A stretch of DNA of 56,730 nucleotides, taken from NCBI GenBank assembly GCA_013815795.1, contig JACDFK010000001.1, positions 1 to 56,730 of the forward strand, read 5' to 3'. The notes below the pieces were generated by a model, which did no database searches, was not told the DNA's origin, and saw nothing but the letters and a program-made list of their open reading frames with translations. This DNA is from Candidatus Babelota bacterium (GTDB lineage: Bacteria; Babelota; Babeliae; Babelales; Babelaceae). Shown one piece after another: positions 9,787 through 53,917 of the stretch (position 1 is its first letter; every line of letters begins with the position of its first letter). Made by a program: the position numbers and the translations under genes.

Positions 9787-10439
9787 TTAGTTGGAATGCC
9801 CTTTTAATCTCAATAAGCGTTTGTTGGAAACAATATCCGATAGCCCTACTGCCCCTGAATGATACCCGAAAAGAACGGTCTTCTCATAAAAATTAAATGC
9901 TGGAGAAGTAACTGGATTTTCTTGCTTTTTGGTTAATTCTACTACCTTTCTCCTGATAAAGCATCCCATAAACAAACTCTCCCTTTAGTTGAGCCCGAGA
10001 AAATCATGCTTCCCGCTGAACTAAATGCCGCTGAACAGATAGAACTAGAATGCCATTTCAACTCTATCAACTAATCTCCAGCGAGAGCATTCCATACGCA
10101 GATCACTCCCTGAGATGACCCGTAAGAAGTTTTGTTCCGTTTGGACTAAATGCTAGGGACTCGATCTCTCCCTCATCATCCTATCTGTAACAGTTGCAAC
10201 CCTGTTACAAGATCCCACAAACAAGCTGTTTTATCTTTAGATCAGGTAAAAAGGTTCTCCATGTAAAAAAGAAAATCATCGCCTTCACGGATCATCGTTA
10301 GGTGTTTTTCTTGAAATGTTTGAGGAGCGTAGTCACTTTCTTCAAGAATACGCCCTTTTTGATTCATGCAAGGAGCATACTCCATCATTGAAGCTATAAA
10401 GATACATGTACAAAAAAATAGTTTTTTATTTAAATCTAC
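9787..10439 (-). pseudogene. Decayed paralogue of the adjacent WD40 gene 10473..12056
   Basis: Minus-strand fragment VDLNKKLFFCTCIFIASMMEYAPCMNQKGRILEESDYAPQTFQEKHLTMIREGDDFLFY aligns to MMHINKNLFFCIGILLVSMVQCIKGMDEKWDIFEKSEHTTQVLLGKHLSITREGEDFVFY, but the ATG is lost. KTVLFGYHSGAVGLSDIVSNKRLLRLKGHSN aligns to QLVLFGYKDGIISLCNIEKKKCLLKLKGHNG. There are several stops and frameshifts in between. Confidence 0.6.
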
Positions 10440-13208: not shown

Positions 13209-13413
13209 CACTATAACCTCTTATTTTTTTACGGGATTTTTCTTAAAGACAGTTTAATTTTTACCATACTTCAAGCGTATCATAACGCATTGGTTTGCCA
13301 AGGGCTTGTTTTTCTAAATGTAAGTCTTCAGCTCATCTAGTAGCTCTATGAAAATGCTCTATAACAAAAGAGTAGAATCTCCTAAATCATTACGGTGTGA
13401 TTACCACCTAGAG

Positions 13414-18585: not shown

Positions 18586-18617
18586 TAACTCCCGAAAGCT
18601 TAACTCTATCTTTATAA

Positions 18618-18654
18618 ATCAGGCCTTTCTCAAATAATTTGAGAAAGGCCTGAT
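18618..18654. terminator. Perfect 17-bp stem / 3-nt loop hairpin between NTT paralogues 2 and 1
   Basis: atcaggcctttctcaaa-taa-tttgagaaaggcctgat. A T7 run follows on the plus strand and TTATAAAG on the minus strand, so it is probably a bidirectional or minus-strand terminator. Confidence 0.55.
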
Positions 18655-18681
18655 TTTTTTCACTTTAAATATATCGCTGAA

Positions 18682-20115: not shown

Positions 20116-20402
20116 ACAGTAATCCTTAATGTATTAAATTTTCATATATACCTATAGAGGGTCAACGTCAGGCGCTTTGTCGCGCGTTTTTTGATTTTTT
20201 TTACATCATAGAGCAATCTCCCTCATAGTAGGTAGGCACACTTTTCTTTCTAAAAAAGTTAACTCCCCTATTATATCTTTTTTAAATAAGTATAGCCACT
20301 AAAAAAACCAAATCCCCGCAAGAATACAACATAAATTCAATAATACACGCTTAAAACCCTCAAGAAAAAGCCACTTTCTTCTGCATAGTATAGATTATTT
20401 AA

Positions 20403-21716
20403 TTAACAGACTACTGTATTTGAATCGACCGATTTTTTATACGTTTTACCTACATAAAGAGCAACAACAATCCACAACAGAATGCTACCACCTAAAAGAA
20501 AGCTACTGTTATTCAGAGAAGACAAACCTGCCAATCCCGGCCCAAAAACTTCTATCCATGCTTGAGATTTGAAATGCACATCGCTTGAAGTAGGAACATA
20601 TAATTGACGTAGAGCGGATCTATAAAGCATCTGTGCTATCGCCTGGGATAGTACCATTAACCAAAACAGTAGGTTCGTTTGAGCATGATACTTAAACGCC
20701 AGAGCTACCAACCCGAAAAGTAACGGCATGAAAACGAGCAAAGCGGGAACTGCTCTCCATCTTCGAAGGATAATTATACCAAAAAGAAAACAGAGAAATA
20801 TTCCTATATTTACATAAAAAGCATAGGACCCTATATAAGATATCCTCTCAAAGGGCGCAGGAAATTGTGTTCGAGCTAATGTTCTGAAATAACTACTAAG
20901 CTCCGTCCCAATGAGCCCCTGAAAAAAGAAAATTCCTAAGATACCTATAAGATAGGGTTGAGTAAGTATAAGCGTAAGTCCTTTAAAAATTCCCGGTTCG
21001 CCTGCAGGGGTATCAGCTCTTTTTTCAGTAAAACCAATCATCTGTTCGGGTGAAACCCGTGCTTTAAGAACCCTCACAAGAGGAACAATTAAAAACATCA
21101 AAAGCCCAGAAAAAATAAATATCCACGCATTACTTATCACATTAAAATGCATACCAAAGCGTAGCGATAAGTTAGTTACCAAAAGAGGCACAAACGTTCT
21201 TCCGAGCACTCCAACCATCAGTACCACTAAAAATCCTTTTTCAGCCGACTTTGGTGTCGTACTATCGGTCGCGAATGCCCAAAAAAGAGCAACAAACAGA
21301 GATCCAAAACTTTGTATAAACACGTACAACACCCATCCCAGCATATGAGAAGGATCTGCCTGTCCGTTAGCAAAATCCCTAGGGAGGTAAAACACCAAAC
21401 CAGCAATAACTAATGAGGTAAAACCATAGACTATACTCAAAACAGAGAACAGTGCTTCTCGGGATAATTTCTCCACAAGTTTACTATATATCAGAACTAA
21501 GGGGATCATACTTATCAAAGAGATAATTTGGGCTCGTTGGATAAACTCCCCCCCTACAATGTCTTTAAAAAGGACATCTCTAACAATAGCAAGTGCCGCA
21601 TAGATACCGATTATATGACCTAGCACAACTCCCAAAAGCAGAAACTTTTTTAATTCTTCTCGATTAAAATCACCAAAGAGTTGTGTGAAAATATATTTAG
21701 TATACTGAAAAGCCAT
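20403..21716 (-). CDS. TLC-family nucleotide translocase, paralogue 3; close copy of paralogue 2 with a C-terminal internal deletion
   Basis: Collinear with 18682..20115 (EELKKFLLLG..., WAFATD, YVPTSSDVHFKSQAWIE, both end in VVC). It lacks ~45 aa before the last hydrophobic segment. Confidence 0.8.
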   Translation of the reverse strand: MAFQYTKYIFTQLFGDFNREELKKFLLLGVVLGHIIGIYAALAIVRDVLFKDIVGGEFIQRAQIISLISMIPLVLIYSKLVEKLSREALFSVLSIVYGFTSLVIAGLVFYLPRDFANGQADPSHMLGWVLYVFIQSFGSLFVALFWAFATDSTTPKSAEKGFLVVLMVGVLGRTFVPLLVTNLSLRFGMHFNVISNAWIFIFSGLLMFLIVPLVRVLKARVSPEQMIGFTEKRADTPAGEPGIFKGLTLILTQPYLIGILGIFFFQGLIGTELSSYFRTLARTQFPAPFERISYIGSYAFYVNIGIFLCFLFGIIILRRWRAVPALLVFMPLLFGLVALAFKYHAQTNLLFWLMVLSQAIAQMLYRSALRQLYVPTSSDVHFKSQAWIEVFGPGLAGLSSLNNSSFLLGGSILLWIVVALYVGKTYKKSVDSNTVVC

Positions 21717-21792: not shown

Positions 21793-22144
21793 TATTGTCA
21801 ACCTATATAACCATTAAAGACATACTTCGTGCAAGAGATTCTTGCACGAAGTAATCCCTGTTCTATTACCACCTTACAGATCATCCTACATGATGAACTC
21901 TTCAACACAGTTTAAGAGTATAATCCTTAACAGAGCTTTCTGTTTCGTAAATTTTTGAATGTCTTAAAAGAAAATATAATTTCGCGCCCTTGGTAAAGCT
22001 CTTATGAAGCTTCCTGTAAAAGAGAACGGGTCTCTTTTACAAACCGGAAAATTAACGGTAATGGATTTAATTATAAAATATGTTATAATTAAAATAGTTA
22101 ATAATTTTAATCTAACTTTTGAAAAAATCATAAAAAGGACTTCT

Positions 22145-23065
22145 ATGAAAAAAATTCTCCTTCTTTCTTTACTTGGATTACCTACCATACCCGTAGTAGG
22201 TATGGAAAATCAAAAAGAAATACAAATCAGCGATGATTGTGGTTTCATTAATAGTCCTTTTGCTTTTCTTATACATTATGCACCTCTATTAAAAGCATTA
22301 AATAAGAGAGAAACTATCTCTAAAGAAGAGATAAGAAATCTATTGAAAGATGGCAAAAAAGTAATCGTGGCAGCTTTAGAAAAAATGGATTTTTCAATTA
22401 TAGAAAACATCGATTTTGATACCATAGAAGTAAGTTCAAATAAAACTTGTGCAAGCGATTCGCAGATTTATCTTAAAGAATCTGACATTGGTTCCCGGAT
22501 GGGCCTTAAATACCAGCTGTTATTTCTTGCTTTTGATAATCTAGAACTCGAGGAAGCAAGGGAATTAATTAAAGATATAGCTCTTATGGATCAAGAACTA
22601 TATATACGTCTTTGCGATACTGTTGAGCCTTGGTTTTGGGAAGATTATAAAAAATCTCTGCTATCTGAGAAACAAGCAGAAGAAAGAGATAATGCTCTTA
22701 TAGACCAAGAACTTTTTATGATTTTGAAACCGGATTGTCAAGAAAAACCCCAAGGGCCACTGCCATGGGAAGCCTATGAAATACCTCTTTTAAAAGAAGC
22801 GCTCGCTAAAGAGCTGCTTTTAACGTCCTACCAAGCACCTATTTTTTCAGTATTAGATATACTCATCATAAAATTACAAGAATTATCACGAACACCGGAA
22901 AATAACAGTCCTAAAGTTGAAGAACTGTATTGTTTTCTTGCATGGCTTGCAGAGAACGGAATAAAGGATAGTATAAAAGGTAGAGAACTGGGTAGAACAG
23001 CTATTGAACAGGCAAAAAGCGAGGGTCTTACCGATCTAGCTAAATACTTAGAATTTCTATTTTAA
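22145..23065 (+). CDS. Hypothetical secreted alpha-helical protein with an internal repeat
   Basis: AAAGGA precedes the ATG at 22145, and MKKILLLSLLGLPTIPVVG is signal-like (the track start 22004 is probably too long). Internal repeat ALMDQELYIRL...PWFWEDY...LL-E versus ALIDQELFMIL...PLPWEAY...LL-E. Confidence 0.6.
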   Translation: MKKILLLSLLGLPTIPVVGMENQKEIQISDDCGFINSPFAFLIHYAPLLKALNKRETISKEEIRNLLKDGKKVIVAALEKMDFSIIENIDFDTIEVSSNKTCASDSQIYLKESDIGSRMGLKYQLLFLAFDNLELEEARELIKDIALMDQELYIRLCDTVEPWFWEDYKKSLLSEKQAEERDNALIDQELFMILKPDCQEKPQGPLPWEAYEIPLLKEALAKELLLTSYQAPIFSVLDILIIKLQELSRTPENNSPKVEELYCFLAWLAENGIKDSIKGRELGRTAIEQAKSEGLTDLAKYLEFLF

Positions 23066-26522: not shown

Positions 26523-27036
26523 ATGAATAGTTTAAAAAAACTAGCGATATCCTTCTTAGTCCTAAAATTGTTACATTCAAATCTTCACGGTATGAATCAA
26601 TTATTAGAAGAAAGTACATCTAAAAACATTACCTTAAGGTCTGGAAAACTAAGAAATTACTCATACGAGCAGTTTCTTAGTTTTCTCTCTACCTCCTACA
26701 CAGGGATCATTAGAAATCGATCAACCTACAAACATAGAGTATCTCCCTTATTCAGATTACTATCTTAATAATCTCCTTATGTTTCTTTATCTGGAAAGAG
26801 CTCCTGTAAAAATAAGGCAGTATATTGCGTGTCTCCTGCTTGGAAATACGTTAGACCTTAATTTTCAACTTTACAAAACATTCAATCATACAGGTCCAGC
26901 ACAAGAAGTTCATTTCGACCTTAAAAACAGATGTATCCATCTAGAATTGAAAGATACATTAACGAACCAAAAAAAATCGGTCATTGTAGAAATTCTAACA
27001 AAACAAGAACTGTCCCTCTTTCCATCAGTAACATAA
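26523..27036 (+). pseudogene. Truncated, frameshifted copy of the three-module WD40 family; leader and N-module only
   Basis: MNSLKKLAISFLVLKLLHSNLHGMNQLLEESTSKNITL parallels MNFHKKSRFFILFSILQISVLQGMDNPLEKIEKTQDENITV. The second frame gives YLNNLLMFLYLERAPVKIRQYIACLLLGNTLDLNFQLYKTF, parallel to ...ILPPDIKRYITLLMLGHTLDSNFEYLKTF. No WD40 repeats or C-module follow. Confidence 0.55.
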
Positions 27037-34821: not shown

Positions 34822-35421
34822 TTAGTCTAATATAAATGATTGACCTTTTCTTTTTAAAAATGCCCCTTTTTTCTTGTACCGTATAATATCATTTTTACTC
34901 ACGATATTGGCATCTGGATAACCGGCTTCCGTTACTCCTTTATCATTCGATTGAGGCCTGAGGCCTTCTTTATCCAATGCAACATAGATCGACTTACCAG
35001 GTTTAAAATGGTATATAAAAGATGGTTCCTCAGGTCCTACAACTTGCCATCCTTCGAAATAACTTTCTGTTCCTGCTCCCGATGCTGCTGCCCGACTAGG
35101 AGGAACTGCTCCGATTACTCCCGGAGACTTTTTAGCCCATATGAAGAGGACTGTAGGTTTATCGATTGCGATTCGCTGGCTGTAATCATTGTCTAGTATA
35201 GTTTTACCCAAGACTGTTCGTGCAGGGTCTACTGAGGCGTCAAATTCGTTTCCTAGAGGACCGCCCGTAGCGTTCACCATATAAATTCTAATGGCATTCT
35301 CCGTTCTATTAATAATATCAAATCCCGGGTTTTTTTCAGTACCTACTTGTGAGGCTGAGGCATTAAAGGCCATTCCAATGAAAAAGCTTAGAGCTAAAAG
35401 GGATTGTGTTAGTTTTTTCAT
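34822..35421 (-). CDS. Small secreted protein, member A of a three-member paralogous family
   Basis: Signal peptide MKKLTQSLLALSFFIGMAFNASA. Shares the blocks (F/I)-x-I-x-N-x-x-x-x-x-I, hydrophobic-(I/L/V)W, F-x-x-G-x-(S/T)-(I/L)Y(V/L) and LRP with 44740..45267 and 45371..45946. Confidence 0.65.
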   Translation of the reverse strand: MKKLTQSLLALSFFIGMAFNASASQVGTEKNPGFDIINRTENAIRIYMVNATGGPLGNEFDASVDPARTVLGKTILDNDYSQRIAIDKPTVLFIWAKKSPGVIGAVPPSRAAASGAGTESYFEGWQVVGPEEPSFIYHFKPGKSIYVALDKEGLRPQSNDKGVTEAGYPDANIVSKNDIIRYKKKGAFLKRKGQSFILD

Positions 35422-35599: not shown

Positions 35600-36135
35600 T
35601 TTCTTTATTTGAGAGACTGAGCGCTCTTTTTTAAGAGCTACAAACACTATTCCATCTGGCATAACCCCAGGAAAAACCATTTCTATTCCTCTTCTCAACC
35701 TGCGAAATGAGCGTCTTCTCGTCTTCTTTAGTAGTTGTACGAAATTTAATTGAGAGGCTCATTCTGGTTTTGTTGACTGATAGGGGGCATTTTAGCCTTT
35801 CACTCCTCATGTTTTAGTGAAAGTTTGACCTTGTTGATTATCCCTCATCTTAAAATAATATCCTGAGACTGAAAAGACAATGTCTGTAAGGCCTTGAAAA
35901 ACGGCAAGAATATTTTCTGTTAAATTTCATAAACATGCAGTGTAGCCATCTAATCCTGTAAGAATAATTTCACCCCCGGGACTATAAGCGAGCCTCAGAC
36001 GGAGTTTTTATGGCTAGAAAGTACAGTAATAAAATCACCTCTTAAGTCCAAGCCGTGGGCTGTCTGATCATCTGAGACACACAAAAACTGGTACCGTATT
36101 TTATACAGTACTCACTACTACTCTAGAAAATACAG
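35600..36135 (-). pseudogene. Heavily decayed WD40 gene relic; approximate limits
   Basis: Minus-strand fragments VSDDQTAHGLDLRGDFITVLSSHKNSV-stop, AYSPGGEIILTGLDGYTACL-stop and NILAVFQGLTDIVFSVS carry the WD40 pattern (GH..V.S.A.SP.G..ILTG..D.TA.LW). They sit in different frames and are broken by stops. Confidence 0.45.
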
Positions 36136-38285: not shown

Positions 38286-40208
38286 ATGAAAAAATATCTA
38301 CTTTTATTCACTAGTTGCCTGTTTTTCATTGCACTCTCTTTAAAAACGAGAGAAATAACGCCCTTAATACCTCGTAAAGCATTCTTTGGAAACGCTCAAC
38401 AGCTAGCAGTAACTATTTCCCCTGATGGAAAGTATCTGGCATATCTTGCACGTATACGTCCCGAAGATGAGACCAGCCCTTTAACTATTTGGATACAAGA
38501 AATAACTACTTCACAAAAAAAGCCACTGATCACCTCTCATAGTAAATCTATCTGGCTTTACTACTGGGCTCCCGATAGCTCAAGAATACTCTATCTTGAA
38601 GATACGGATGGTGACGAAAACTGGCAGTTATATGGAATAGAGAGAGAAACGCTGCATACCATCAACTACACTCCCTTTGAGAAGTGCCAAACTCGTATTA
38701 TAGAAATAAATTCGGAGGACCCTTCAACTATTGCTATTGCACTTAATAAAGATGATCCTCAGTTACACGATATTTATATCTTAAATCTGCATACAGGAAC
38801 ATTGCGTCTCACCTGCAAAAACCCGGGAAATATCTCGCACTGGGCCTTAGATAAAAACTTGAGAGTACGTGCTGCACTCAAAGAGACCGTTGACGGAGGA
38901 AAAGAGCTTCTTATCACCACCGATACAAAAGGAACGATATGGAAAACCGTACGCACGTATAATGCTGAAGACAGCCAAAATGGCTGCTCTCTTTTGTGTT
39001 ACTCCTCAAAAAAGAACTGCTTATATCTTCTTGAATCAAAAGGATACAATACGACACGACTCGTTTCTTTTTCTCTACGAACAAAAGAAATAACGATTAT
39101 TATGCAAGATCCTTCCTATGATATAACAAACGCTTTTATGAGCTCTCTTACGGAAGAAATAGAAGCAATCACCTGCGAACGAGAGAAGTTAGAATGGCAG
39201 TTTATAGAATCGGGCGTCTACGAAAGACTTTACAAAGCTGTTTCTCGTAAGTACCCAGGAACCATCCAGATAGAAAGCTCCGACGCCACCGAAAAACAGT
39301 TCGTAGTTTCTGTTGAAAAGGACGTGAGCCCTCTCTGTTATTATCTCTACGATGATATAAAAAACTCCGTTATAGAACTTTGTAAAGCACGCCCCTGCCT
39401 CAAGGAAAATGCACTGTGTCCCACCGAGCCAATCTCTTTAGAAAGCAGAGATGGACTGATGCTCTACGGTTATCTTACAGTACCCCGGGGTAAAAAAAAC
39501 GCTATTCCTATGGTTCTTCTGGTACATGATGGCCCCTGGCGTAGGGTACGATGGAGATATAACGCTATAACTCAATGGCTAGCTAATAGAGGGTATGCGG
39601 TACTTGATATTAATTACAGAGGATCCACTGGCTATGGAAAAAAATTTATGAATGCAGGAAATAAAGAATGGGGAGGCGCTATGCAAGATGACCTTCTTGA
39701 TGCCGTAGCGTGGGCTATAAAAAAAGGCATTGCAGATCAGAGCAAAATCGCTATTTTTGGCGGATCTTATGGAGGCTACGCTGCTCTTGCGGGAGCTGCA
39801 TTTACACCCGACGTATTTTGTTGCGCTATTGATCTGGTTGGCATAAGTAACCTTATAAGTTTTTTGAATTCGATACCTCCCTACTGGAATGTATATCGAG
39901 CCAAGCTCTATAATGCTATCGGAAACCCGGACAATGAAAAAGCTTTTTTGGAATCCCGCTCACCCCTTTTTAAAGCAGATGCGATAAAAATCCCTATTTT
40001 GATAGCTCAAGGAGCACAAGATCCTCGCGTAAAACAGGAAGAGTCTGAACAGATAATAGCGGTACTAAAAAAAAGAGGCATTCCTCACACGTACCTTCTT
40101 TTTAATGACGAAGGACATGTTTTTACGAATGCCTCTAATAAATTAAAGCTCTATGCAACAGCTGAAGAGTTTCTCTCAAAATTCTTAGGGGGACGCTGCG
40201 AGCCCTGA
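38286..40208 (+). CDS. Secreted S9-family serine peptidase (prolyl oligopeptidase / dipeptidyl aminopeptidase type)
   Basis: Signal-like MKKYLLLFTSCLFFIALSL, an N-terminal propeller-like region, and an alpha/beta hydrolase C-domain with nucleophile GGSYGGY, QGAQDPRV (Asp) and DEGHVF (His). Confidence 0.88.
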   Translation: MKKYLLLFTSCLFFIALSLKTREITPLIPRKAFFGNAQQLAVTISPDGKYLAYLARIRPEDETSPLTIWIQEITTSQKKPLITSHSKSIWLYYWAPDSSRILYLEDTDGDENWQLYGIERETLHTINYTPFEKCQTRIIEINSEDPSTIAIALNKDDPQLHDIYILNLHTGTLRLTCKNPGNISHWALDKNLRVRAALKETVDGGKELLITTDTKGTIWKTVRTYNAEDSQNGCSLLCYSSKKNCLYLLESKGYNTTRLVSFSLRTKEITIIMQDPSYDITNAFMSSLTEEIEAITCEREKLEWQFIESGVYERLYKAVSRKYPGTIQIESSDATEKQFVVSVEKDVSPLCYYLYDDIKNSVIELCKARPCLKENALCPTEPISLESRDGLMLYGYLTVPRGKKNAIPMVLLVHDGPWRRVRWRYNAITQWLANRGYAVLDINYRGSTGYGKKFMNAGNKEWGGAMQDDLLDAVAWAIKKGIADQSKIAIFGGSYGGYAALAGAAFTPDVFCCAIDLVGISNLISFLNSIPPYWNVYRAKLYNAIGNPDNEKAFLESRSPLFKADAIKIPILIAQGAQDPRVKQEESEQIIAVLKKRGIPHTYLLFNDEGHVFTNASNKLKLYATAEEFLSKFLGGRCEP

Positions 40209-40921
40209 GCATCTGTGTAGCACTGCTCTACATGATCCCAATTTACCACATTCCACCACTGATCTATATAGTCAGGACGCCTATTGTGGAACTTTAAATA
40301 ATACGCATGTTCCCATACATCAAGGCATAGTAAGGGAATCATTCCGCGTGAAAACGGTGTATCTTGATTTGCGGTAGTAATAATAGCACATGACCCATCT
40401 TTTTGTAACACGAGCCACGCATAACCACTCCCGAAAACGCTTTTAGCAGCAGTCGAAAACGCGGTTTTAAATGAATCAAAATCAGAGAAATGCTTTGTAA
40501 GCAGAGCCTCTACAACTGGAGTGGGTTTTCGAGAACTACAGGGAGTCATACATAACCAAAAGAAAGAATGATTATAATGACCACCAGCATTATTAAGGAT
40601 TTTGGTTCTCAAAGCCCGAGGAATTTTCAGGGGATCACTCAAAAGTTTCTCAAGAGGTATCTTCGCTACACGAGGTTTCCCTTTAAGGACAGCATTAAGC
40701 TCATCAACATATTTTTGGTGATGTTTGGTATAATGAGTCTCCATAGTCTTTACATCAATATAAGGTTCTAAAGAAGCATATCTATAACCAAGCTGAGGTA
40801 ATTCATAAGGGTATCCTTTTGCTAGAGGGGTTTTACTGCTCTTTTCTTGACAAGCCGTTTCCCAACAAAACGCGACAAAAACAGTACTTATAAGAACTGT
40901 TACATAAGAACGATTATTCAC
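40151..40921 (-). CDS. Fe/Mn-family superoxide dismutase (Mn-type signature) with N-terminal signal-like extension
   Basis: Leader MNNRSYVTVLISTVFVAFCWETAC plus a ~20-aa linker. SOD core HYTKHHQKYV, NNAGGHYNHSFFW, DVWEHAYYLKFHNRRPDYI. The 3' end overlaps the convergent peptidase gene by 58 nt. Confidence 0.85.
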   Translation of the reverse strand: MNNRSYVTVLISTVFVAFCWETACQEKSSKTPLAKGYPYELPQLGYRYASLEPYIDVKTMETHYTKHHQKYVDELNAVLKGKPRVAKIPLEKLLSDPLKIPRALRTKILNNAGGHYNHSFFWLCMTPCSSRKPTPVVEALLTKHFSDFDSFKTAFSTAAKSVFGSGYAWLVLQKDGSCAIITTANQDTPFSRGMIPLLCLDVWEHAYYLKFHNRRPDYIDQWWNVVNWDHVEQCYTDAQGSQRPPKNFERNSSAVA

Positions 40922-40931
40922 TAGTTTCTCC

Positions 40932-41540
40932 TTACCCTACAAGAGAGCGATATTTTTCTTCGACTATCTCCCAATTAATTACATGCCACCAGGCAGCTAT
41001 ATAGTCGACTCGTTTATTTTGATATTTTAAATAATAGGCATGCTCCCAGACATCAAGACCGAGAATAGGCATCATTGATTCAGAAAGAGGACTATCTTGA
41101 TTAGCGGTAGAATGTATAACGAGGTTGCCCTTTGTATCAAAGGAAAGCCATGCCCACCCGCTGCCAAAGCGAGATTTAGCAGCATTTGAGAACTCCTCCT
41201 TAAAAGCATCAATACTTTTAAAGGAAGAAAGAACTGCTTCCTTTACTCTACCACGAGGTTCCCCTCCACGCGCATTCAAAAACTCCCAAAACAAAGAATG
41301 ATTATAATGGCCTCCCCCATTGTTTCGAATAGCAGTTCGAACAGACTCCGGAACCGTCTCTATATTTTTTAGAAGATCTTCCAATGATTGTGCTTGGAGG
41401 TGCGGATGATCTTTTAAAGCTGCATTCAGCTCATCAATATATTTTTGATGATGTTTGGTATAATGAATTTCCATGGTTTTTGCATCGATGTAAGGTTCTA
41501 AGGCATCGAAAGCGTACGGGAGTTTTGGTAACGTGTACAT
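40932..41540 (-). CDS. sodA: Fe/Mn-family superoxide dismutase (Mn-type signature), cytoplasmic form
   Basis: MYTLPKLPYAFDALEPYID, HYTKHHQKYI, NNGGGHYNHSLFW, DVWEHAYYLKYQNKRVDYI. No leader. Confidence 0.9.
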   Translation of the reverse strand: MYTLPKLPYAFDALEPYIDAKTMEIHYTKHHQKYIDELNAALKDHPHLQAQSLEDLLKNIETVPESVRTAIRNNGGGHYNHSLFWEFLNARGGEPRGRVKEAVLSSFKSIDAFKEEFSNAAKSRFGSGWAWLSFDTKGNLVIHSTANQDSPLSESMMPILGLDVWEHAYYLKYQNKRVDYIAAWWHVINWEIVEEKYRSLVG

Positions 41541-42082: not shown

Positions 42083-43306
42083 TTACCTACTCAGTTTTAT
42101 TGAGAGTCCCTCTACCACAAGAGAGCGAGCTTGTGCGTTCTCTATACTCATAAGGGTTCTATAGTCTTCTGTGCCAGGCTGTATCCTAAAAGGGTCTCCT
42201 GCACTTTTTGCTCTATAGGCCCTTAAGATAAGCGAAGCTTGAGGTCCTGTAACAAACTCTCTTAACCATTTCAATGATTCTAAGCTTTTGTCCCATACTT
42301 TAATTGTTTCGTCGTCACCTACGGTATACAGCTTCTTCCCATCCAGACTAAAGGAAACAGAATGCACTGCCGCTGTGTGTCCATACAACGTTTTAAGCCT
42401 CGCGCCCGATCGTACATCCCACAGTTTTACAGTCCCATCTTTCGATGCGGTAGCCAACTGTTTTCCATCAGGACTAAATTCAACTGCCACCACACTATCC
42501 ATATGACCACCAAGAGTTATACGCTCAGTACCCGTTTCAGTATCCCATATTTTTGCGGTAGTATCATACGAACCTGTTGCAATACTTTTCCCATCCGGGC
42601 TAAACGCAATCGACAGCACACTTTGAGCATGTCCTGCAAAAGTTTTAAGTTCGTTTCCCGAGTCTACATCCCATAAGAGAGCTGTTGTATCCCACGATCC
42701 GGTGGCCAGTTGGGTCCCGTCGGGACTAAATGCAACTGCATTTATAGCACCTCTGTGTCCCTGAAGTGTGGTAAGTCTATCTCCTAATTGAGCATCCCAC
42801 AGTAGTACTGCTCCACCCCATGATCCTGTTGCAATGAGTGTTCCCTCTTTATTAAAGGCCAGTGCCAATACATCGCTTGTGGGGGCTCTTAGTGGCGCCA
42901 GTTCTGTAAAGGATTTCAGATTCCAGAGCTGCACTGAAGGAAAAATAGCAATTTTATTTCCATCCACGCTAAAAACAGTTCTACGCCCACCTCCCTCGTG
43001 GACTTGAAAAGTGTGCACCGTATTTCCACTTACCAGATCAATAAGGCTCAAGCTTTCATCCCCTCTTATTGAAAATATCTTATGATTAGGACTGAGTGCA
43101 ACTAAGCGGCTAAAAGTAGTAAAGGTTTTTAGAGGATATATATTTTTCTTAAGGTATGAGAGCACCTCATCAATACTCTTAACCGCTATTTCATGCTGAA
43201 TATCAGCGGGTAGATCTTTTTGACGAGGACAATACTGCATTGCCTCTGCTAGAAAACCAGAAAGCATAAGTACCAGATAAGCTACGTGAGTTATTCTCTT
43301 ATCCAC
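42083..43306 (-). CDS. WD40 repeat protein with hydrophobic leader, subfamily B copy 1
   Basis: GTG start with AAGGAG 8 nt upstream. Leader VAYLVLMLSGFLAEA. N-terminal ~100 aa parallel to 43522..44553. Seven WD40 units, plus a C-terminal helical tail. Confidence 0.85.
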   Translation of the reverse strand: MDKRITHVAYLVLMLSGFLAEAMQYCPRQKDLPADIQHEIAVKSIDEVLSYLKKNIYPLKTFTTFSRLVALSPNHKIFSIRGDESLSLIDLVSGNTVHTFQVHEGGGRRTVFSVDGNKIAIFPSVQLWNLKSFTELAPLRAPTSDVLALAFNKEGTLIATGSWGGAVLLWDAQLGDRLTTLQGHRGAINAVAFSPDGTQLATGSWDTTALLWDVDSGNELKTFAGHAQSVLSIAFSPDGKSIATGSYDTTAKIWDTETGTERITLGGHMDSVVAVEFSPDGKQLATASKDGTVKLWDVRSGARLKTLYGHTAAVHSVSFSLDGKKLYTVGDDETIKVWDKSLESLKWLREFVTGPQASLILRAYRAKSAGDPFRIQPGTEDYRTLMSIENAQARSLVVEGLSIKLSR

Positions 43307-43521: not shown

Positions 43522-44553
43522 TCATGAGTTTACATTCCATACTCGGATTGTCTCATCCTTTGAGGCGGTATAAAGGGTCTGTCCATCGGCACTAAAAGAA
43601 ACCGAGAGGATCGTATCTGTATGTCCTTGAAAAGTTTTAAGTTCAGAACCGGATTCGGGGTCCCACACTTTTGCAGTCTTATCTGCTGAACCAGTAGCTA
43701 CTTTTTCACCATCAGGACTAAATGCAACGGCCCTCACAGGTTTAGTGTGTCTGCTGAGAGTCCTAAGTTCAGCACCAGATTCAGTATCCCATACTTTTGC
43801 TGTACCATCTTCAGAACCGGTAATGAGTCTTTTGCCATCCGGGCTGAATGCCACTGCCACGACTGCTTTTGTATGTTTTTGTAAAACTCTAAGTTCAGCA
43901 CCAGTTTCTGTATTCCACAGACGTGCTGTTTCGTCAAAAGATCCCGTAGCTATTTTTCTACCATCGAGGCTAAATGCACTCGCCACCACAGGCCCCACAT
44001 GTCCCACACTCGTTCGAAGTTCTTTGCCCGATTGAGTATCCCATAGTTTTACCGCTCCATCCAAAGAGCCCGTAACCATACTTCTGCCATCAGGGCTAAA
44101 TGCAAGAGTCTTTACATTCGCGGTGGGGGACCGCAACATGGTTAGTTCACCACCAGATTTTATTGACCATACTTTTACAGATGGTACTATTCCTACTTTT
44201 TTCCCATCCAAACTAAATATAGCTGAGGAGATACCTGGTCCATATACAGGAAAAAGCTGTAACTTATTTCCGCTTAGAAGATCAACCACGGTAGCATTTT
44301 TGTCTCCCACGGTAATAAAACTGGTTTTATCCGGACTTACTACCGCTACACGACTATAGGTATTAAAAACTTTTGAGGACTGTATACTTTTATCAGGATA
44401 TGATACTACTTCAACTATATTTTTTATAGATTGAGCATTCTTACCTAGAATTTCTTCATTAGGCTTCTGCTGAGCAGCTCCTAGAGTGCACACATACAGC
44501 ATAGCCCCCGCAAAGAAAGAACCATACCTTAAAGATCTACTATTTCTATACAC
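43522..44553 (-). CDS. WD40 repeat protein with hydrophobic leader, subfamily B copy 2
   Basis: GTG start. Leader GSFFAGAMLYVCTLGAA. VVSYPDKSIQSSKVFNTYSRVAVVSPDK parallels VLSYLKKNIYPLKTFTTFSRLVALSPNH in the neighbouring gene. WD40 units GH..PV.AVAFSPDG..(I/V)(A/I)TGS.D.TAK(V/L)WD. Confidence 0.85.
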   Translation of the reverse strand: MYRNSRSLRYGSFFAGAMLYVCTLGAAQQKPNEEILGKNAQSIKNIVEVVSYPDKSIQSSKVFNTYSRVAVVSPDKTSFITVGDKNATVVDLLSGNKLQLFPVYGPGISSAIFSLDGKKVGIVPSVKVWSIKSGGELTMLRSPTANVKTLAFSPDGRSMVTGSLDGAVKLWDTQSGKELRTSVGHVGPVVASAFSLDGRKIATGSFDETARLWNTETGAELRVLQKHTKAVVAVAFSPDGKRLITGSEDGTAKVWDTESGAELRTLSRHTKPVRAVAFSPDGEKVATGSADKTAKVWDPESGSELKTFQGHTDTILSVSFSADGQTLYTASKDETIRVWNVNS

Positions 44554-44739: not shown

Positions 44740-45267
44740 TTATTTTACAGACTTAATGTCTTCAGACTCAACATTATTTTTCAGACTAAAATTAGACTGA
44801 GTTTTTTTCATGAGTCCCATAAGAGGTCCTGTCTCTGGCCTTACATTCTGTGATGAATCGACTGTGACATAGATAGTTTTGCCTTTGGTAAAACTAAACA
44901 CTTTATCCGGATCAGGATTGAAACCCCACTCTTTATTAAAGCTTAAGAATCCTTTAGGCTTAAAATCCTGTGGTTCAGTAAACCACAGTGCTAATATGGT
45001 GTCTTTACCTAAATCAGCAGTGTAGTATTTAGCTACAGAAGTTCCCGAAATTGGTCTAGAAGTAAATAACGATGAAGATTCGTTACCGTTCTGTATCGCA
45101 TACCATATCTGTTTTCCGCTTTTATTATATATTTCGATACCAAAGTCACCCGCCTTTGAATATTCATAGGATTTCTTGTGTGATCCGGTACGTTCAGTAA
45201 TTGCCGCATGTACCATTGAACTTGCCATAAGACATAACGCAATATGCATGCTAATCATTTTTTTCAT
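44740..45267 (-). CDS. Small secreted protein, family member B
   Basis: Signal peptide MKKMISMHIALCLMASSMVHAA. Blocks FGIEIYNKSGKQIWYAIQNG, ILALWFTEP, VFSFTKGKTIYVTVD, VRPETG, SLKNNVESEDI. Confidence 0.65.
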   Translation of the reverse strand: MKKMISMHIALCLMASSMVHAAITERTGSHKKSYEYSKAGDFGIEIYNKSGKQIWYAIQNGNESSSLFTSRPISGTSVAKYYTADLGKDTILALWFTEPQDFKPKGFLSFNKEWGFNPDPDKVFSFTKGKTIYVTVDSSQNVRPETGPLMGLMKKTQSNFSLKNNVESEDIKSVK

Positions 45268-45370: not shown

Positions 45371-45946
45371 TTACTTTCCCGTTAATCTCGCAACGATTTC
45401 TTTATTTTCCGTACTTGAAGGCACAAAAATATCTTTAGCAGGAATATTCTTTTTAAGACTTAGACCAGATTCAGTTTTACCAAATCCTCCAAATATTCCA
45501 CCTAAACGACCTTTAGTTGGACGTAAAAGAGCATCACCAGATGGATCCCAGGTAAGATACAGGGTACTACCGGTTGAAAAACTATACACTCTATCAGGTT
45601 TTTGTAATCTATCGCCGGTCGGTTCAGAATACCATACAAAAAGATAGGTGCGCTTACTAATATCGATCGCGAAGTTTTTCTTGTATGACAGTTTTTCTCC
45701 TTTACGCAGCCCTTCTGATTTGCTTACGGGGCTCTTAGCATCTCCATTGAAAACCTGGAACCAAATAAGGTCTTTTCCACGGTTTCCTAATTCAAATCCA
45801 ACATTAAAGCCTTTTTCTCCATAGACTGTTGCATCTGCGGGATCGAACGTTACAGACTTTAAGGTTGTTGCTTCAGCTACAGGTGCAGCGTTTACGCCAA
45901 GACCTACAGATAATAAACTCAGCACGCATGCTACTATTTTCTTCAT
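45371..45946 (-). CDS. Small secreted protein, family member C
   Basis: AAGGAG upstream. Signal peptide MKKIVACVLSLLSVGLGVNAA. Blocks VGFELGNRGKDLIWFQVFNG, YLFVWYSEP, VYSFSTGSTLYLTWD, LRPTKG, SLKKNIPAKDI. Confidence 0.65.
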   Translation of the reverse strand: MKKIVACVLSLLSVGLGVNAAPVAEATTLKSVTFDPADATVYGEKGFNVGFELGNRGKDLIWFQVFNGDAKSPVSKSEGLRKGEKLSYKKNFAIDISKRTYLFVWYSEPTGDRLQKPDRVYSFSTGSTLYLTWDPSGDALLRPTKGRLGGIFGGFGKTESGLSLKKNIPAKDIFVPSSTENKEIVARLTGK

Positions 45947-46592
45947 AAAACTCCTTATATGTTTTTATTAATTTTACCTAAAACGAACATTTTTTTTAGA
46001 AAGTGAACTTTTTCTATACATCCTCCTCCACTATTTTCATCTTTTTTGATACTTTATATACATTAACCGTTTCAATAAAAGTGAGTTTTCTCACTACGCT
46101 TGTCCCCTTTATCTGTATGAAAAAGTTCTCTATGCCTGCTCATAGAGCTTTTCTAGACAAGAAGGAGCCTTTTCCACTTATTCAAGAACCACCACGTAGG
46201 TACTCCACTGATGTATGTAAGATACAGTGACACACCTTTTCTTAAAATTTTTCTTCAATGCCGTTTCTAACTCTTTACCTTTTACGTGGTAGTGAGAACT
46301 TAAAACGGCCCTACCTTATTTTTTTTGCAGAGGTTCATATATTTATTTAATATTATTGCATATTAGAAAATTATAAGTCAACATTAGGCTCTTTTTTGTA
46401 AAAAAATTACTATACGAATCCTACCAAAAGTGCGAAAATAGCTTGTGTCTTCATCCTTAATCACCAAAAAAATCTTTCCGCAGAAAAGATTAACACTTGA
46501 GGAGCGTCAAAACCTTCGTGCTCTATGCATTTAAATTCAGTTGAAAAAAATCGGTGAAAGGATAATACTGGAAGTTCGAAAGGAATACCCCC

Positions 46593-50359: not shown

Positions 50360-50576
50360 TACTCAAGGTATTTCTCGTACATGCACACTTAGAAAAGGCA
50401 CTAGGTACTCTCAAACTATTTTTCCACCAAAAATAACACTTTTATTTAATGGAATAAACGACATTCTACTTACTTAAAAACGTAATGCCATTGAAAAAAT
50501 AGTTGATAATTCTTTATTATTATAAACAATGACACCACAAAAAGGTGTGAGTTTAAAATTATCTAGGAACAATTGT

Positions 50577-52151
50577 ATGAATTACTTTAAAAAAATAAGG
50601 ACGGGTATCATACCCCTCTTATTCTTGAGCTTTTCAGTTCACTGCATGCACATTTGCCATCACTCTAGTAAAGAGGTCTTACACAATACATGTACCAGGC
50701 TCTATCCCCAACAGGAATTACTCTTTGAAAAAACCATGATAGATACACTTTCAAAAGAAAAAGTAACCAGAAGATTAGGCACCCTTTCAAGTCCACCTAC
50801 TTACATGTTCAATTTACTACAATTTATCCGCCACAGCAGAAAAATTCTTCCTTTAGACATACACGTGGTAATCGCCCACCTCCTTACTCGTTTAGTTTTA
50901 GGAAATGCATTAGACTACAATTTCGAACTTTCAGAAGAGCTAATCAAGTTTAAGACCCCTATTGAAACCATAACCTTTAGCCCTGATACAAAAACTGTCC
51001 TTATTACCTCAGATAATTTCACCACGTTTCTATGGGATATTGAAAAAAAAACAGAACTGTTATACCTAAATCCTAAAAAATTCGCTTATCAGATAGATTC
51101 GCCTCGCTTTAATCAAAACGGGAAAACAGTCTATATATCGACCCTGAATAGCATTTCTATACTAGATATAGCGACCGGACATCTTGTGAAAAAAGTAGAT
51201 CTTCTTCCCGGCCTTTCTAGCGTTACAGCTCTCAGCCCCGATGGTCGAACTCTCCTGTCCTTATTACATAACAGAAACCCCCAATCGTTGCTCCTAGGAT
51301 CACTCAAAGACCCTCGAATTATCGATATAATAACTAACGAACGGTTTTTTCTCCAAGGACATAAAAAGATTGTGTTATCAGCAGTATTTAGCCCCTGCGG
51401 GAAAATGATTCTTACGGGATCCTTTGATGGAATAGCACGATTATGGGACAGTTTAACGGGAAATTTTATTAAAGAGTTCACAGGAGAACGATCTGGCATC
51501 GATTCTGGTATTTCGCTCGTAGCATTTAGTCCATGTGGGGAAAAAATTTTTACGGGTCCACACTTCAAAAAAGATTTAACACGTACTATTTGTATGTGGA
51601 GCGTTCTTGCAGGGGACTATTTATTAGAACTAAATCTACACCATGAAGAGCCACTCTCAGCCGCTGTTGGCCCCAATGGAAAAACGATTCTTACGGTATC
51701 TTATCAGTCACTACGATTATGGGACATCACAAATGGAAATCAACTCGCTGCTTTAAAAATAGATCCTCTGAACTGTTATTCTTTTCCCTATAGCTTTGTC
51801 TATAGCTCTGATAGAGATGCTTTTCTTGTGGGAGTGCCTAAAGATTCTTCTATTTATACATGGAGTATGATTCCTTGCGATGCAAGTAACTGGATCTTAC
51901 ATAAAACCAATCTTTCACAGGCATGGCTTATTACACAAGCAGCAGATGCAAAAAGAAAAACAGGATCCTTTATCATGAATGAACAAAGTCTTGAACATGA
52001 ACTATTTCAACAACTACCACAGTATGTACAAGAATATGTAATACACTGGTATTCACTGTCTATCATTCCACAAGGCATCGAATTACTTGAAAATAGAGAT
52101 ACATCTTGGAATAAAGGGAACCATGAGCTGTGCTGTTACCTTGTACCATAA
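50577..52151 (+). CDS. Three-module WD40 protein, tandem copy 1
   Basis: Leader MNYFKKIRTGIIPLLFLSFSVHC. N-module NLLQFIRHSRKILPLDIHVVIAHLLTRLVLGNALDYNF. Degenerate and canonical WD40 units (AVFSPCGKMILTGSFDGIARLWD). C-module CDASNWILHKTNLSQAWLITQAA...EHELFQQLPQYVQEYVIHWYSLSIIP. Confidence 0.8.
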   Translation: MNYFKKIRTGIIPLLFLSFSVHCMHICHHSSKEVLHNTCTRLYPQQELLFEKTMIDTLSKEKVTRRLGTLSSPPTYMFNLLQFIRHSRKILPLDIHVVIAHLLTRLVLGNALDYNFELSEELIKFKTPIETITFSPDTKTVLITSDNFTTFLWDIEKKTELLYLNPKKFAYQIDSPRFNQNGKTVYISTLNSISILDIATGHLVKKVDLLPGLSSVTALSPDGRTLLSLLHNRNPQSLLLGSLKDPRIIDIITNERFFLQGHKKIVLSAVFSPCGKMILTGSFDGIARLWDSLTGNFIKEFTGERSGIDSGISLVAFSPCGEKIFTGPHFKKDLTRTICMWSVLAGDYLLELNLHHEEPLSAAVGPNGKTILTVSYQSLRLWDITNGNQLAALKIDPLNCYSFPYSFVYSSDRDAFLVGVPKDSSIYTWSMIPCDASNWILHKTNLSQAWLITQAADAKRKTGSFIMNEQSLEHELFQQLPQYVQEYVIHWYSLSIIPQGIELLENRDTSWNKGNHELCCYLVP

Positions 52152-52309
52152 TTAAAAAATAGTATGGTCAAGCAGCTATAATGCTTCGCCTAGACTACTA
52201 ATTTCTAAAGAGTATCCTTTGTAAAATCATTGGAAATACACTACCATAAGTAATGACACATAGACAAAAACTTTAATTTTAAAACTAGACAAAACCAAAG
52301 AGTAATAGT

Positions 52310-53917
52310 ATGAATTTTCATAAAAAAAGCAGATTTTTTATACTATTTTCAATCCTGCAGATCTCAGTGCTTCAGGGCATGGATAACCCGCTTGAAAAAA
52401 TAGAAAAAACTCAAGACGAAAATATCACAGTGTATTGCCAAGGACAAGATTTACTATTTCGTAAAACGATACTAGATGAACTTTCACAAGAAACAGCTAC
52501 GATCAAAATAGGCAAAATTTCAGAGAGCTATCTGCTAAATTTATTACAGTTTAACACCTGCACTAGAGAAATTCTCCCTTTGGAAATCAGATATACTATT
52601 GCCATTATACTTACTCGTGTAGTGCTTGGAAATGCTGTGGACTATAACTGCCAGATCGCTGAAAATTTAATCACGTTTGATGACCCTATCCTTTCGATAG
52701 CCTTAAGCTCTGATGCAAAAACTGCTCTTATTCAATCTGATGAGTTCACGCTGACTCTCTGGGATATAGCATTAAAAGTACCAGTTTTATATCTAGAGAA
52801 AACGGATCAACCTTTTTCTTCACCGAAATTTAATTCTGAGGGCACAATAATTTCGGCCTCTTCTAGAGGGGAGTTCTTCTTATGGGACAGCGAGACAGGG
52901 AAACAACTCTCTTCTCCCGACAGCTGTGAAAAAATAGTAAGCCCTGGTGGCAAAATTTTACTAAAAATTCCCCGTGAATGTAAAAACTTTGAAAAAAAAT
53001 TCCCCAAGAAAGGTGCTACGCTCGTTGATCTTACCACACAAGAACTTTTATTTGTTCTTGAAGAAGATAAACCTTTAGTAGAAGCCTGGTTATTTCCCTC
53101 ACTCAAAAATACCATCAACGTAGATTCAGCAGCTTTTAGCCCCAACGGAGAAATCCTTGTTACAGTATCTTATTGGAGACGTTACGGAAGCACTTTTCGA
53201 GTGTGGGATGTTCATACAGGAACTCTTCTAAAAAAGTTTACGCAAACTAAGAGGATAGTATCGATAACATTTGGAGCCGACAGTGAAACTATTCTTACAG
53301 GGGGTGGTGATGGCATAGCGCGCGTATGGAATATTTTGTCCGGCCAACAATTAGTAGTATTGCCACATTGTAATGAAAGTGACATTAAGTCGGCATTGTG
53401 GAGCCCTGATGGAGGAACTATCCTTACGGTATCTTATAAAGACGAAGATTTTCAAACGTATCAAAATTACCATACTGAGGCTCAACAGATGATACATCTC
53501 TGGGATTCAACAACAGGGCATCAACTGTCTTTATTAGAAGTAGATCCTCGCTATTCCTATTGCGTGGCTTATAATCTCGAAACTGAGAACATACTTATTG
53601 GATCTACTAAAGATTCTAGCATCTTCATGTGGAAGATGATTCCTTGTAAAGCGAGCGACTGGATTTTGAACAAGATATCACTGATTCAAGCGTGGCTTAT
53701 TACAAAAGCAGCATATTCAAAAAGAACCACCGGATCTTTCGCCATAGCGGAAAATAGTATTGAACATGAACTGTTTATGCAGCTACCCGATTACGTTCAA
53801 GAATATGTAATACGGTGGTATTCACTCTCTATTATTCCCAAAAGCATACAGTTACCTGAAATTGAAAATATGTATTTGGATAAAGAGACGCATGAGCTTT
53901 CTTGTTGCTTACAATAG
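52310..53917 (+). CDS. Three-module WD40 protein, tandem copy 2
   Basis: Leader MNFHKKSRFFILFSILQISVLQG. N-module NLLQFNTCTREILPLEIRYTIAIILTRVVLGNAVDYNC. WD40 units (TILTGGGDGIARVWN). C-module CKASDWILNKISLIQAWLITKAA...EHELFMQLPDYVQEYVIRWYSLSIIP. Confidence 0.85.
   Translation: MNFHKKSRFFILFSILQISVLQGMDNPLEKIEKTQDENITVYCQGQDLLFRKTILDELSQETATIKIGKISESYLLNLLQFNTCTREILPLEIRYTIAIILTRVVLGNAVDYNCQIAENLITFDDPILSIALSSDAKTALIQSDEFTLTLWDIALKVPVLYLEKTDQPFSSPKFNSEGTIISASSRGEFFLWDSETGKQLSSPDSCEKIVSPGGKILLKIPRECKNFEKKFPKKGATLVDLTTQELLFVLEEDKPLVEAWLFPSLKNTINVDSAAFSPNGEILVTVSYWRRYGSTFRVWDVHTGTLLKKFTQTKRIVSITFGADSETILTGGGDGIARVWNILSGQQLVVLPHCNESDIKSALWSPDGGTILTVSYKDEDFQTYQNYHTEAQQMIHLWDSTTGHQLSLLEVDPRYSYCVAYNLETENILIGSTKDSSIFMWKMIPCKASDWILNKISLIQAWLITKAAYSKRTTGSFAIAENSIEHELFMQLPDYVQEYVIRWYSLSIIPKSIQLPEIENMYLDKETHELSCCLQ

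Follow-up and report, generated by a model that had tools for sequence, protein, structure and literature searches.

The 56,730-nucleotide (nt) stretch of contig JACDFK010000001.1 from Candidatus Babelota bacterium (assembly GCA_013815795.1), hereafter the window, carries three related genes encoding leader-bearing WD40 proteins, here named A (50577..52151, plus strand), B (52310..53917, plus strand) and C (10473..12056, minus strand). On balance, these genes seem to represent a lineage-restricted, exported and host-directed protein family of a Dependentiae (Babeliales) parasite of protists, whose members would act as Sec-exported effectors anchored by a host lipid. In each protein a leader is followed by an N-terminal module (N-module), a WD40 propeller and a C-terminal module (C-module), and the C-module is followed by a variable tail that in B and C ends in a CaaX-type tetrapeptide. 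Dependentiae are widespread and almost uncultured parasites of protists, and all that is known of their host-manipulation proteins is how many ankyrin, WD40 and leucine-rich repeat (LRR) proteins the genomes encode. They also appear to lack the type III and type IV injection systems used by known prenylated effectors.

Architecture and conservation of the three proteins

A preliminary description of this DNA had proposed a four-part layout for the three genes, consisting of a leader, an N-module, a WD40 propeller and a C-module of about 70 amino acids (aa). All three open reading frames (ORFs) were found at the coordinates given there and the layout was confirmed in A, B and C, although a fifth part, the variable linker ending in the CaaX-type tetrapeptide, had been overlooked (Table 1). 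Membership in the WD40 family is clear from the Pfam model PF00400, with scores of 69.1 (A), 46.9 (B) and 152.1 bits (C) against a cut-off of 27 and E-values of 2.9e-19, 3.1e-12 and 1.6e-45, respectively. Because Pfam recognises only one individual repeat in A and two in B, the blades of these two propellers can be regarded as degenerate, as had been proposed for several blades of the family. In C, Pfam recognises six repeats, and a count by eye gives seven W-D/S/N strand-C ends.

The C-module is the best conserved region in a three-way alignment, with identities of 72.5% (A-B), 38% (A-C) and 43% (B-C). The corresponding values are 38, 31 and 31% for the propeller and 45, 29 and 27% for the N-module, so that the earlier impression of a C-module more conserved than the propellers holds. 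For gene A, a longer ORF starting at 50529 exists. The ATG at 50577 was judged the better start because an AGGAA Shine-Dalgarno-like site lies 8-12 nt upstream of it, because a promoter-like site (TTGAAA-18-TATTAT, 50491-50520) precedes the gene, and because the resulting start MNYFKK aligns with the start of B (MNFHKK). A promoter and terminator scan around the A-B pair gave a signal at background level only.

CaaX-type tails

A Cys is found at exactly position -4 in 14 of the 35 family members, against a background Cys frequency of 2.0% (binomial p = 3e-15, treating members as independent). The tetrapeptides are CSIQ (three members), CSLQ (two members) and CSVQ, CCLQ, CCVQ, CCIQ, CCMQ, CPMQ, CSLL, CRIH and CLIC (one each). 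The a2 residue is I, L, V or M in all 14 and the X residue is Q in 11 and L, H or C in one member each, with 11 of the 14 following the pattern C-[SCP]-[ILVM]-Q. Judged by sequence, these tetrapeptides would be textbook CaaX boxes, mostly of the farnesyltransferase type. Leu at X points to geranylgeranyltransferase-I. In a saturation screen of yeast farnesyltransferase, Q at X was positive, I, L, M or V at a2 was favourable, and P, K or R at X was restrictive (PMC10320760). By the rules taken from this work, a2 should not be D, E, K or R, and X is permissive as Q, S, M, A or C for farnesyltransferase and as L or F for geranylgeranyltransferase-I.

The CaaX motif is kept even though the linker between the C-module and the Cys ranges from ~6 to ~125 residues and is otherwise unconserved. 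Within the window, B ends in CCLQ, C in ...YGLCSLL and a third gene, 428..1498, in CSIQ. As the last of these carries a tail homologous to that of B and has neither module, the prenylation tail appears to be a separate, shuffled element. The conserved C-module had initially been considered as a possible secretion or localisation tag, but the most obvious localisation tag is instead the CaaX box at the extreme C-terminus. In the literature library that was searched, Dependentiae or TM6 are nowhere linked to CaaX boxes or prenylation.

Two further ORFs of the window have ends of this kind. The 345-aa ORF 8194..9231 (minus strand) has a strongly hydrophobic N-terminus and ends in ...LPHFCTVF, which is CaaX-like with Phe at X (geranylgeranyl type). 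It has no Pfam or NCBIfam match and may encode another host-lipidated effector. In addition, an intergenic stop-to-stop frame at 46000..46230 (plus strand) ends in ...FLDKKEPFPLIQEPPRRYSTDVCKIQ and may be the CaaX-tail relic of a decayed effector gene.

Leader peptides and a conserved methionine

In A, B, C and the three other intact WD40 genes of the window, a Kyte-Doolittle scan identified a single N-terminal hydrophobic segment following K/R and no further one. This combination of a basic n-region and a hydrophobic h-region with no additional transmembrane segment is what is expected of a signal peptide (h-region of 10-16 residues). Shine-Dalgarno-like sites lie ahead of the leader start codons and none lie ahead of the internal Met, which indicates that the leaders are translated. 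Translation from an internal Met, which would turn the leader into an error of annotation, was rejected on the strength of these sites and of the n/h/c pattern, which is conserved across divergent members. A lipoprotein signal at those leaders ending in Cys-Met was likewise rejected, since H, W, Q, F or N ahead of the Cys is incompatible with a lipobox.

The leader end [ILV..]-x-[G/C/S/P]-Met-[D/E/N/Q/K] is common to 19 family members and fits the -3/-1 rule of signal peptidase I. A near-invariant Met, usually followed by D, E, N or Q, is found after the predicted cleavage site in A, B, C, 428..1498, 42083..43306 and 19 database relatives. Ordinary AxA|A/S sites occur in other exported proteins encoded in the window. 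In the database homologues P0009 and P0018 the annotated start coincides exactly with the conserved Met, and a longer version of P0009 exists (P0036). Speculatively, a Met-Asp/Glu N-terminus exposed by cleavage could be stabilising in the host cytosol and evade the host N-degron pathway.

A similar end is seen in the orphan ORF 22004..23065 (plus strand), in which the leader read from the internal Met47 is MKKILLLSLLGLPTIPVVG|MENQKE, with a VVG|ME end. This suggests, from the sequence, a leader class common to this ORF and the WD40 family that would serve effectors.

Distribution of the family and lineage of the bacterium

An exhaustive HMMER search with the C-module profile (E <= 1e-3) among 1.84 billion representative proteins returned only 34 matches, one of which is a low-complexity artefact. 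Every match with a named organism is assigned to 'Candidatus Dependentiae bacterium', so that the family is far from the ubiquity in free-living bacteria that the preliminary description had listed as counter-evidence. N- and C-modules co-occur in about 17 further N-complete proteins from other assemblies, which are nearly all of the N-complete members. The three-module layout is therefore a conserved architecture and not a product of chance. One member, P0026 from a Logan assembly, combines a family-type leader with two tandem C-modules and with ankyrin repeats instead of WD40 repeats (Ank_2, E = 6.7e-16). As the C-module is present twice on this other scaffold, it can be considered an autonomous and portable domain.

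Other routes yielded little. Word-index homology searches with C-module profiles gave nothing or a single fragment, and two scans of Joint Genome Institute (JGI) metagenomes revealed no relatives. A scan of GTDB species genomes with the full-length alignment found only generic WD40 loci (Poribacteria, Actinomycetota and others), although the pattern used, P[DQ][YF]VQEYV, is too narrow for known Dependentiae members and this result is not evidence of absence.

The LysS of the window points to the same lineage. Relatives of its LysS are 60-74% identical; those with a named organism (61-63%) are all 'Candidatus Babeliales bacterium', and the closest reach 74%. Housekeeping functions are represented in the window by rpsB, der, dnaX, lon, recJ, cmk, lysS and two copies of sodA. 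Together with three TLC-type nucleotide-transporter genes in tandem, an LRR protein of 743 aa and a Fic protein, they make up a gene set that marks an intracellular bacterium living as an energy parasite, as judged from sequence. Both the TLC-type transporters and the affinity of LysS to Babeliales support the initial proposal of a multi-module, leader-bearing WD40 family in an obligate intracellular bacterium. The three divergent transporter genes (17176..21716, minus strand) match the Pfam TLC model with E-values of 1e-12 to 2e-19 and stay well short of the cut-off for the NCBIfam superfamily, which suggests an expanded and fast-evolving transporter set.

Leader-bearing repeat proteins had been described as unusual for bacteria. 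This is true in general, but within Dependentiae they are the rule: in Chromulinavorax destructans signal peptides were reported on 44% of coding sequences and on 78% of its 98 ankyrin proteins (PMC6561590).

Fold and possible role of the two modules

Neither module could be placed in a domain family in the preliminary description, and no family emerged from the present searches of Pfam, NCBIfam, PDB sequences and PDB or BFVD folds. Neither the isolated modules nor 36 single C-modules gave a consistent Pfam or NCBIfam match, even at E <= 10, and profile searches against 177,635 PDB sequences returned nothing below E = 0.3. An AlphaFold2 model of the C-module based on a 36-sequence alignment reached a predicted local distance difference test (pLDDT) score of 94.1 and a predicted template modelling (pTM) score of 0.78. 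The predicted structure is a compact alpha-alpha-beta-alpha-alpha-beta domain of 65-70 aa (H6-14, H17-33, E36-39, H43-49, an invariant Leu/Met-Pro turn, H53-62, E65-68), in which the Pro is invariant and the preceding Leu/Met is conserved in the alignment. Foldseek found no significant neighbour of this model (best E = 0.79 in PDB and 0.5 in BFVD, TM-score <= 0.48).

The N-module is modelled as a four-stranded beta-meander followed by a helix, a Leu-Pro and a long helix. Its best Foldseek matches in PDB (E = 0.2-0.7 over ~44 residues, root-mean-square deviation ~2 Å) are single WD40 blades from WDR41, Hsv2 and nucleoporins, and the module probably begins with a degenerate extra propeller blade. 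The initial designation of the N-module as non-WD would thus probably not hold for the whole of it. At the sequence level, the N-module profile gave only chance matches to glycine receptor in PDB. An origin of the two modules by internal duplication was also considered and is unsupported, as hhalign of one against the other recovered only a common 13-column LP motif with a probability of 17%.

In gene C, the last repeat (...AYLWGLSS) runs directly into the C-module, while the N-module ends in ...NFEYLKTFKGH. In WD40 topology the N-terminal strand closes the last blade. Both modules should therefore emerge at the closure blade and be neighbours. Most likely, the N- and C-modules, which stay constant across the family, together serve as a docking or adaptor unit that binds one common partner.

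Proposed mode of action

If A, B and C are indeed host-directed effectors, the Sec-type leader with its end [ILV]-x-[G/C/S]|Met-[D/E/N/Q] would carry the protein over the inner membrane and then be cleaved. Exit through the type II secretion system or in outer-membrane vesicles could follow and provide access to the host cytosol. These steps are plausible given the literature on Chromulinavorax, in which export was attributed to Sec, outer-membrane vesicles were seen and replication takes place in the host cytoplasm (PMC6561590), and on TM6 genomes, in which type II secretion components are conserved across the phylum, with two copies of gspD (PMC4776705). A host farnesyl- or geranylgeranyltransferase would then prenylate the CaaX box, with CCLQ of B as a likely farnesylation site and CSLL of C as a likely geranylgeranylation site. 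This step would follow the established host prenylation of other bacterial repeat effectors, namely AnkB (PMC2916131) and the RCC1-propeller proteins LegG1 and PieG (PMC7157520). Through the flexible linker of ~6-125 aa, the prenyl group could hold the protein at host membranes on their cytosolic side, where the seven-blade propeller, with its fastest-diverging blades, would capture a host target and the constant N/C unit would dock to a partner shared by the family. If true, host prenylation of a Sec-exported protein would extend the AnkB/LegG1 paradigm to a new phylum and to a new secretion route.

Several observations weigh against this scenario. To our knowledge, there is no experimentally established precedent for a Sec leader combined with a CaaX box that depends on the cytosol, and the prenylated effectors that we know of are type III or type IV substrates that have no Sec leader. 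The window holds no secretion-system genes. The cleavage sites were judged by eye, and a conserved Met at +1 is atypical. The counts of CaaX boxes are not phylogenetically independent, and 21 of the 35 members have no Cys at -4, some of them being contig-end fragments and others stopping right after the C-module. The N-module model is of moderate quality (pLDDT 75, pTM 0.40), and neither a partner nor an activity can be assigned to either module. Finally, the end of gene A (CCYLVP) is non-canonical, with no Cys at -4 and a final Pro, which at X is restrictive for farnesyltransferase. A simple frameshift does not account for this tail, as no alignment of the A and B tail DNA restores a CaaX box. 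From its sequence, A is best regarded as a paralogue that has no canonical lipid anchor and could be soluble or differently targeted.

A more far-reaching version of the host-directed reading can be put forward only tentatively. Here a Dependentiae-specific effector cassette for different scaffolds (WD40, or ankyrin in P0026) might consist of the CaaX tail, the C-module and the leader ending in ...[G/C/S]|Met-[D/E/N/Q]. Within it, the C-module would be a new-fold adaptor that brings one conserved host machine, such as ubiquitin or components of the cullin-RING type, to a platform held by the prenyl anchor. The Met at +1 would then escape the Arg/N-degron pathway or be N-acetylated in a NatB-type reaction. 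Such proteins, if true, would be the first Sec-exported bacterial proteins completed by two host co- or post-translational systems.

Alternative explanations

The proteins could mimic substrate receptors of E3 ligases, with an FBXW-like N-module and/or a C-module resembling the SOCS box of WSB proteins docking to Skp1 or Elongin C-cullin, and with the propeller delivering host proteins for ubiquitination at the membrane. The motif LP-x-[D/E]-[I/V]-x3-I...L of the N-module resembles F-box helix 1 in its LP-x-[D/E]-[I/V]-x3-I part and lies directly N-terminal to the propeller, as in FBXW proteins, while S-L-E-H-x-L-F..LP..V-Q-x-Y-L of the C-module lies C-terminal to the WD40 part, as in WSB SOCS-box proteins. 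A constant adaptor on variable repeats, including the C-module on an ankyrin scaffold, also matches AnkB with its F-box, ankyrin repeats and CaaX box (PMC2916131). Poxvirus ANK/F-box proteins (cited in PMC6561590) follow the same logic, and TM6 genomes are reported to encode F-box proteins (PMC4776705). Nonetheless, such mimicry is unlikely. No F-box (PF00646, PF12937, PRANC) or F-box-like match was found for isolated N-modules, nor a SOCS box (PF07525, BC box plus Cul box) in the 36 C-modules, at E <= 10 in Pfam, and the module profiles and Foldseek recovered no F-box or SOCS-box chain from PDB. In the N-module, LP-x-[DE]-[IV] is all that is common to the F-box, and too few residues follow the LP for a three-helix F-box of ~45 aa. 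Two beta strands are predicted in the C-module, a feature of neither box.

Alternatively, the family could belong to the envelope of the bacterium itself, as periplasmic or outer-membrane propellers in a housekeeping or surface role whose C-terminal Cys serves in a disulphide, a sorting tag or bacterial lipidation. The leaders are of the Sec type, bacterial periplasmic propellers such as TolB and BamB exist, and C-terminal sorting tags with a Cys are present in other phyla (MYXO-CTERM; see PMC11980579). A housekeeping periplasmic role of the TolB/BamB kind had been named in the preliminary description as the contrary case. However, the TolB/BamB models score 12-19 bits against cut-offs of 285-343 (TIGR02800, 12.3 bits for A and 19.3 for C versus 343; TIGR03300, 12 bits for C versus 285), with no match for B. 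The Cys is placed exactly at -4 with an aliphatic a2 and Q or L at X, and is not followed by a transmembrane or basic segment as in bacterial C-terminal sorting tags. In addition, birth-and-death evolution, seen in relics and in tandem copies next to insertion sequence and toxin-antitoxin genes, and extreme lineage restriction characterise effectors rather than housekeeping genes, which makes an envelope function quite improbable.

It is highly improbable that the helix-Leu-Pro-helix of the C-module, and perhaps of the N-module, corresponds to a ubiquitin-binding motif (UBM) of the kind found in DNA polymerase iota and Rev1 that binds ubiquitin or ubiquitinated cargo at host membranes: although the best PDB sequence match of the C-module profile is the UBM of polymerase iota (2kwv; EGVDQEVFKQLPADIQE aligned to C-module nSlEheifkslPdyVQe, with 2mbb, of the same entry type, also listed), the Pro and preceding Leu/Met fit, and 42083..43306 carries LPADIQHEI, the match has E = 0.3 over 17 residues only, neither Pfam nor Foldseek recovers a UBM, and the motif forms part of a larger alpha/beta domain, in which conservation falls mostly on residues of the hydrophobic core. 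The UBM match is thus to be taken as a lead suggested by sequence and not as a result.

Comparison with known systems

The family is already known in kind, both from the signal-peptide-bearing repeat proteins of Dependentiae and from the CaaX-anchored effectors of Legionella. Ankyrin, WD40 and LRR proteins with signal peptides in Babela, Chromulinavorax and TM6 metagenome-assembled genomes come from the same phylum and belong to the same general class, and WD40, F-box, LRR and tetratricopeptide repeat proteins have been noted in TM6 genomes (PMC6561590, PMC4776705). In contrast, the N-module, the C-module, the Met(+1) leader end and the CaaX tail are undescribed in these two studies. LegG1/PieG of Legionella pneumophila, a bacterium that lives inside amoebae, is likewise a propeller-repeat protein with a CaaX box at its end, and host prenylation places it on membranes of the host or of the pathogen vacuole (PMC7157520). 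Its propeller is, however, of the RCC1 type, and LegG1/PieG are type IV (Icm/Dot) substrates from another phylum, with no Sec leader, no N- or C-module and no detectable sequence relationship to the family described here. AnkB of L. pneumophila also combines a eukaryote-like repeat scaffold with a small adaptor domain and a CaaX tail, the farnesylated CVLC that anchors it to host membranes (PMC2916131). AnkB differs in its bona fide F-box, for which the present modules fail the criteria, in its ankyrin scaffold and in being a type IV secretion substrate.

Among eukaryotic proteins, the FBXW and WSB receptors have a small helical Leu-Pro module directly beside a WD40 propeller, on its N-terminal side in FBXW and on its C-terminal side in WSB, but the modules described here fail membership by Pfam, PDB profile search and Foldseek. 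In the beta-gamma dimer of heterotrimeric G proteins, a C-terminal CaaX prenyl group keeps a seven-blade WD40 propeller on the cytosolic side of the membrane, and short helical elements lie beside the propeller. Here the resemblance is an analogy of layout only: the prenyl group sits on a separate subunit, the extended two-helix G-gamma contrasts with the compact alpha/beta fold predicted for the C-module, and specific sequence similarity is absent, with the WD40_Gbeta model of Pfam matching C at E = 2e-25, far below its cut-off.

New in this comparison are the family itself, its two orphan domains, one of which has a confidently predicted fold with no neighbours and recurs on an ankyrin scaffold, the conserved Met(+1) leader end, and a CaaX signal in Dependentiae joined to a Sec leader and not to a type III or type IV signal. 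Reuse of the C-module on a second repeat scaffold offers a functional handle on the host pathway targeted by these parasites. The signature of a leader with Met at +1, a C-module and a CxxQ end could also serve to mine Dependentiae genomes for effectors.

Genomic context and other features of the window

Six intact WD40 genes (428..1498, 10473..12056, 42083..43306, 43522..44553, 50577..52151 and 52310..53917), all with a hydrophobic leader, and three decayed copies were counted in the window (Table 1), the same numbers as in the preliminary description. Downstream of B, the segment 54399..56626 contains an ORF for a small membrane protein, a toxin-antitoxin pair of the RelB/ParE type (55068..55555) and fragments of a DDE_Tnp_1_3 transposase, so that the surroundings of the A-B pair are mobile and decaying. 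Directly downstream of gene C, after a gap of 6 bp, 12063..13211 (minus strand) encodes a thioredoxin-reductase-like flavoprotein with a hydrophobic N-terminal extension, which is possibly co-transcribed with C.

Table 1. Positions of genes A, B and C, of their parts and of related WD40 genes and relics in the window.
Feature	Positions	Strand	Length or residues	Remarks
Gene A	50577..52151	+	524 aa	
A leader	50577-50645	+	aa 1-23	
A N-module	50646-50951	+	aa 24-125	
A propeller	50952-51863	+	aa 126-429	degenerate WD40
A C-module	51864-52073	+	aa 430-499	
A tail	52074-52148	+	aa 500-524	last residues HELCCYLVP; no canonical CaaX box
Gene B	52310..53917	+	535 aa	
B leader	52310-52378	+	aa 1-23	end VLQG|MD
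B N-module	52379-52678	+	aa 24-123	
B propeller	52679-53632	+	aa 124-441	degenerate WD40
B C-module	53633-53842	+	aa 442-511	
B tail	53843-53914	+	aa 512-535	YLDKETHELSCCLQ
B CaaX box	53903..53914	+		CCLQ; Cys at -4, a2 = Leu, X = Gln; predicted farnesyltransferase type (specificity from PMC10320760)
Gene C	10473..12056	-	527 aa	
C leader	11982-12056	-	aa 1-25	end CIKG|MD
C N-module	11697-11981	-	aa 26-120	
C propeller	10818-11696	-	aa 121-413	canonical seven-blade WD40
C C-module	10605-10817	-	aa 414-484	
C acidic linker and CaaX box	10476-10604	-		CSLL at 10476-10487; X = Leu, predicted geranylgeranyl type
Decayed copy beside gene C	9793..10433	-		fragments match C leader/N-terminus (aa 4-70) and WD40 blades
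N-module relic	26677..26916	+		spans helix-LP-helix part and propeller start
Short WD40 relic	35864..35992	-		
Separate canonical WD40 gene	428..1498	-		leader; no N- or C-module; tail LDKDTVELACSIQ homologous to B tail; CaaX box CSIQ at 431-442
Distant relative	42083..43306	-		leader LAEA|MQ; short N motif LPADIQHEI; canonical propeller; divergent C-module-like end; no CaaX box
WD40 gene	43522..44553	-		leader; stops at propeller end; no C-module, no CaaX box

Another group of secreted proteins is encoded by 34822..35421, 44740..45267 and 45371..45946 (all minus strand). These three paralogues of 175-199 aa have canonical AxA signal peptides and no Pfam match, are 22-32% identical, and have the motifs W..EP, Y.F..G.(T/S)(I/L)Y(V/L) and LRP in common; by sequence they can be described as an orphan secreted family.

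An Rfam scan found only tRNA-Ser and the signal recognition particle (SRP) RNA, with the bacterial small SRP RNA (50 bits) and tRNA-Ser(GGA) located at 5036..5227 (minus strand) between dnaX and rpsB. The rpsB product is long (339 aa) and partially matches a 'sunset domain' S2 variant. Two Fe/Mn superoxide dismutase genes lie in tandem at 40151..40921 and 40932..41540 (minus strand); one carries an N-terminal hydrophobic leader and the other none, and the leader-bearing enzyme is presumably exported.

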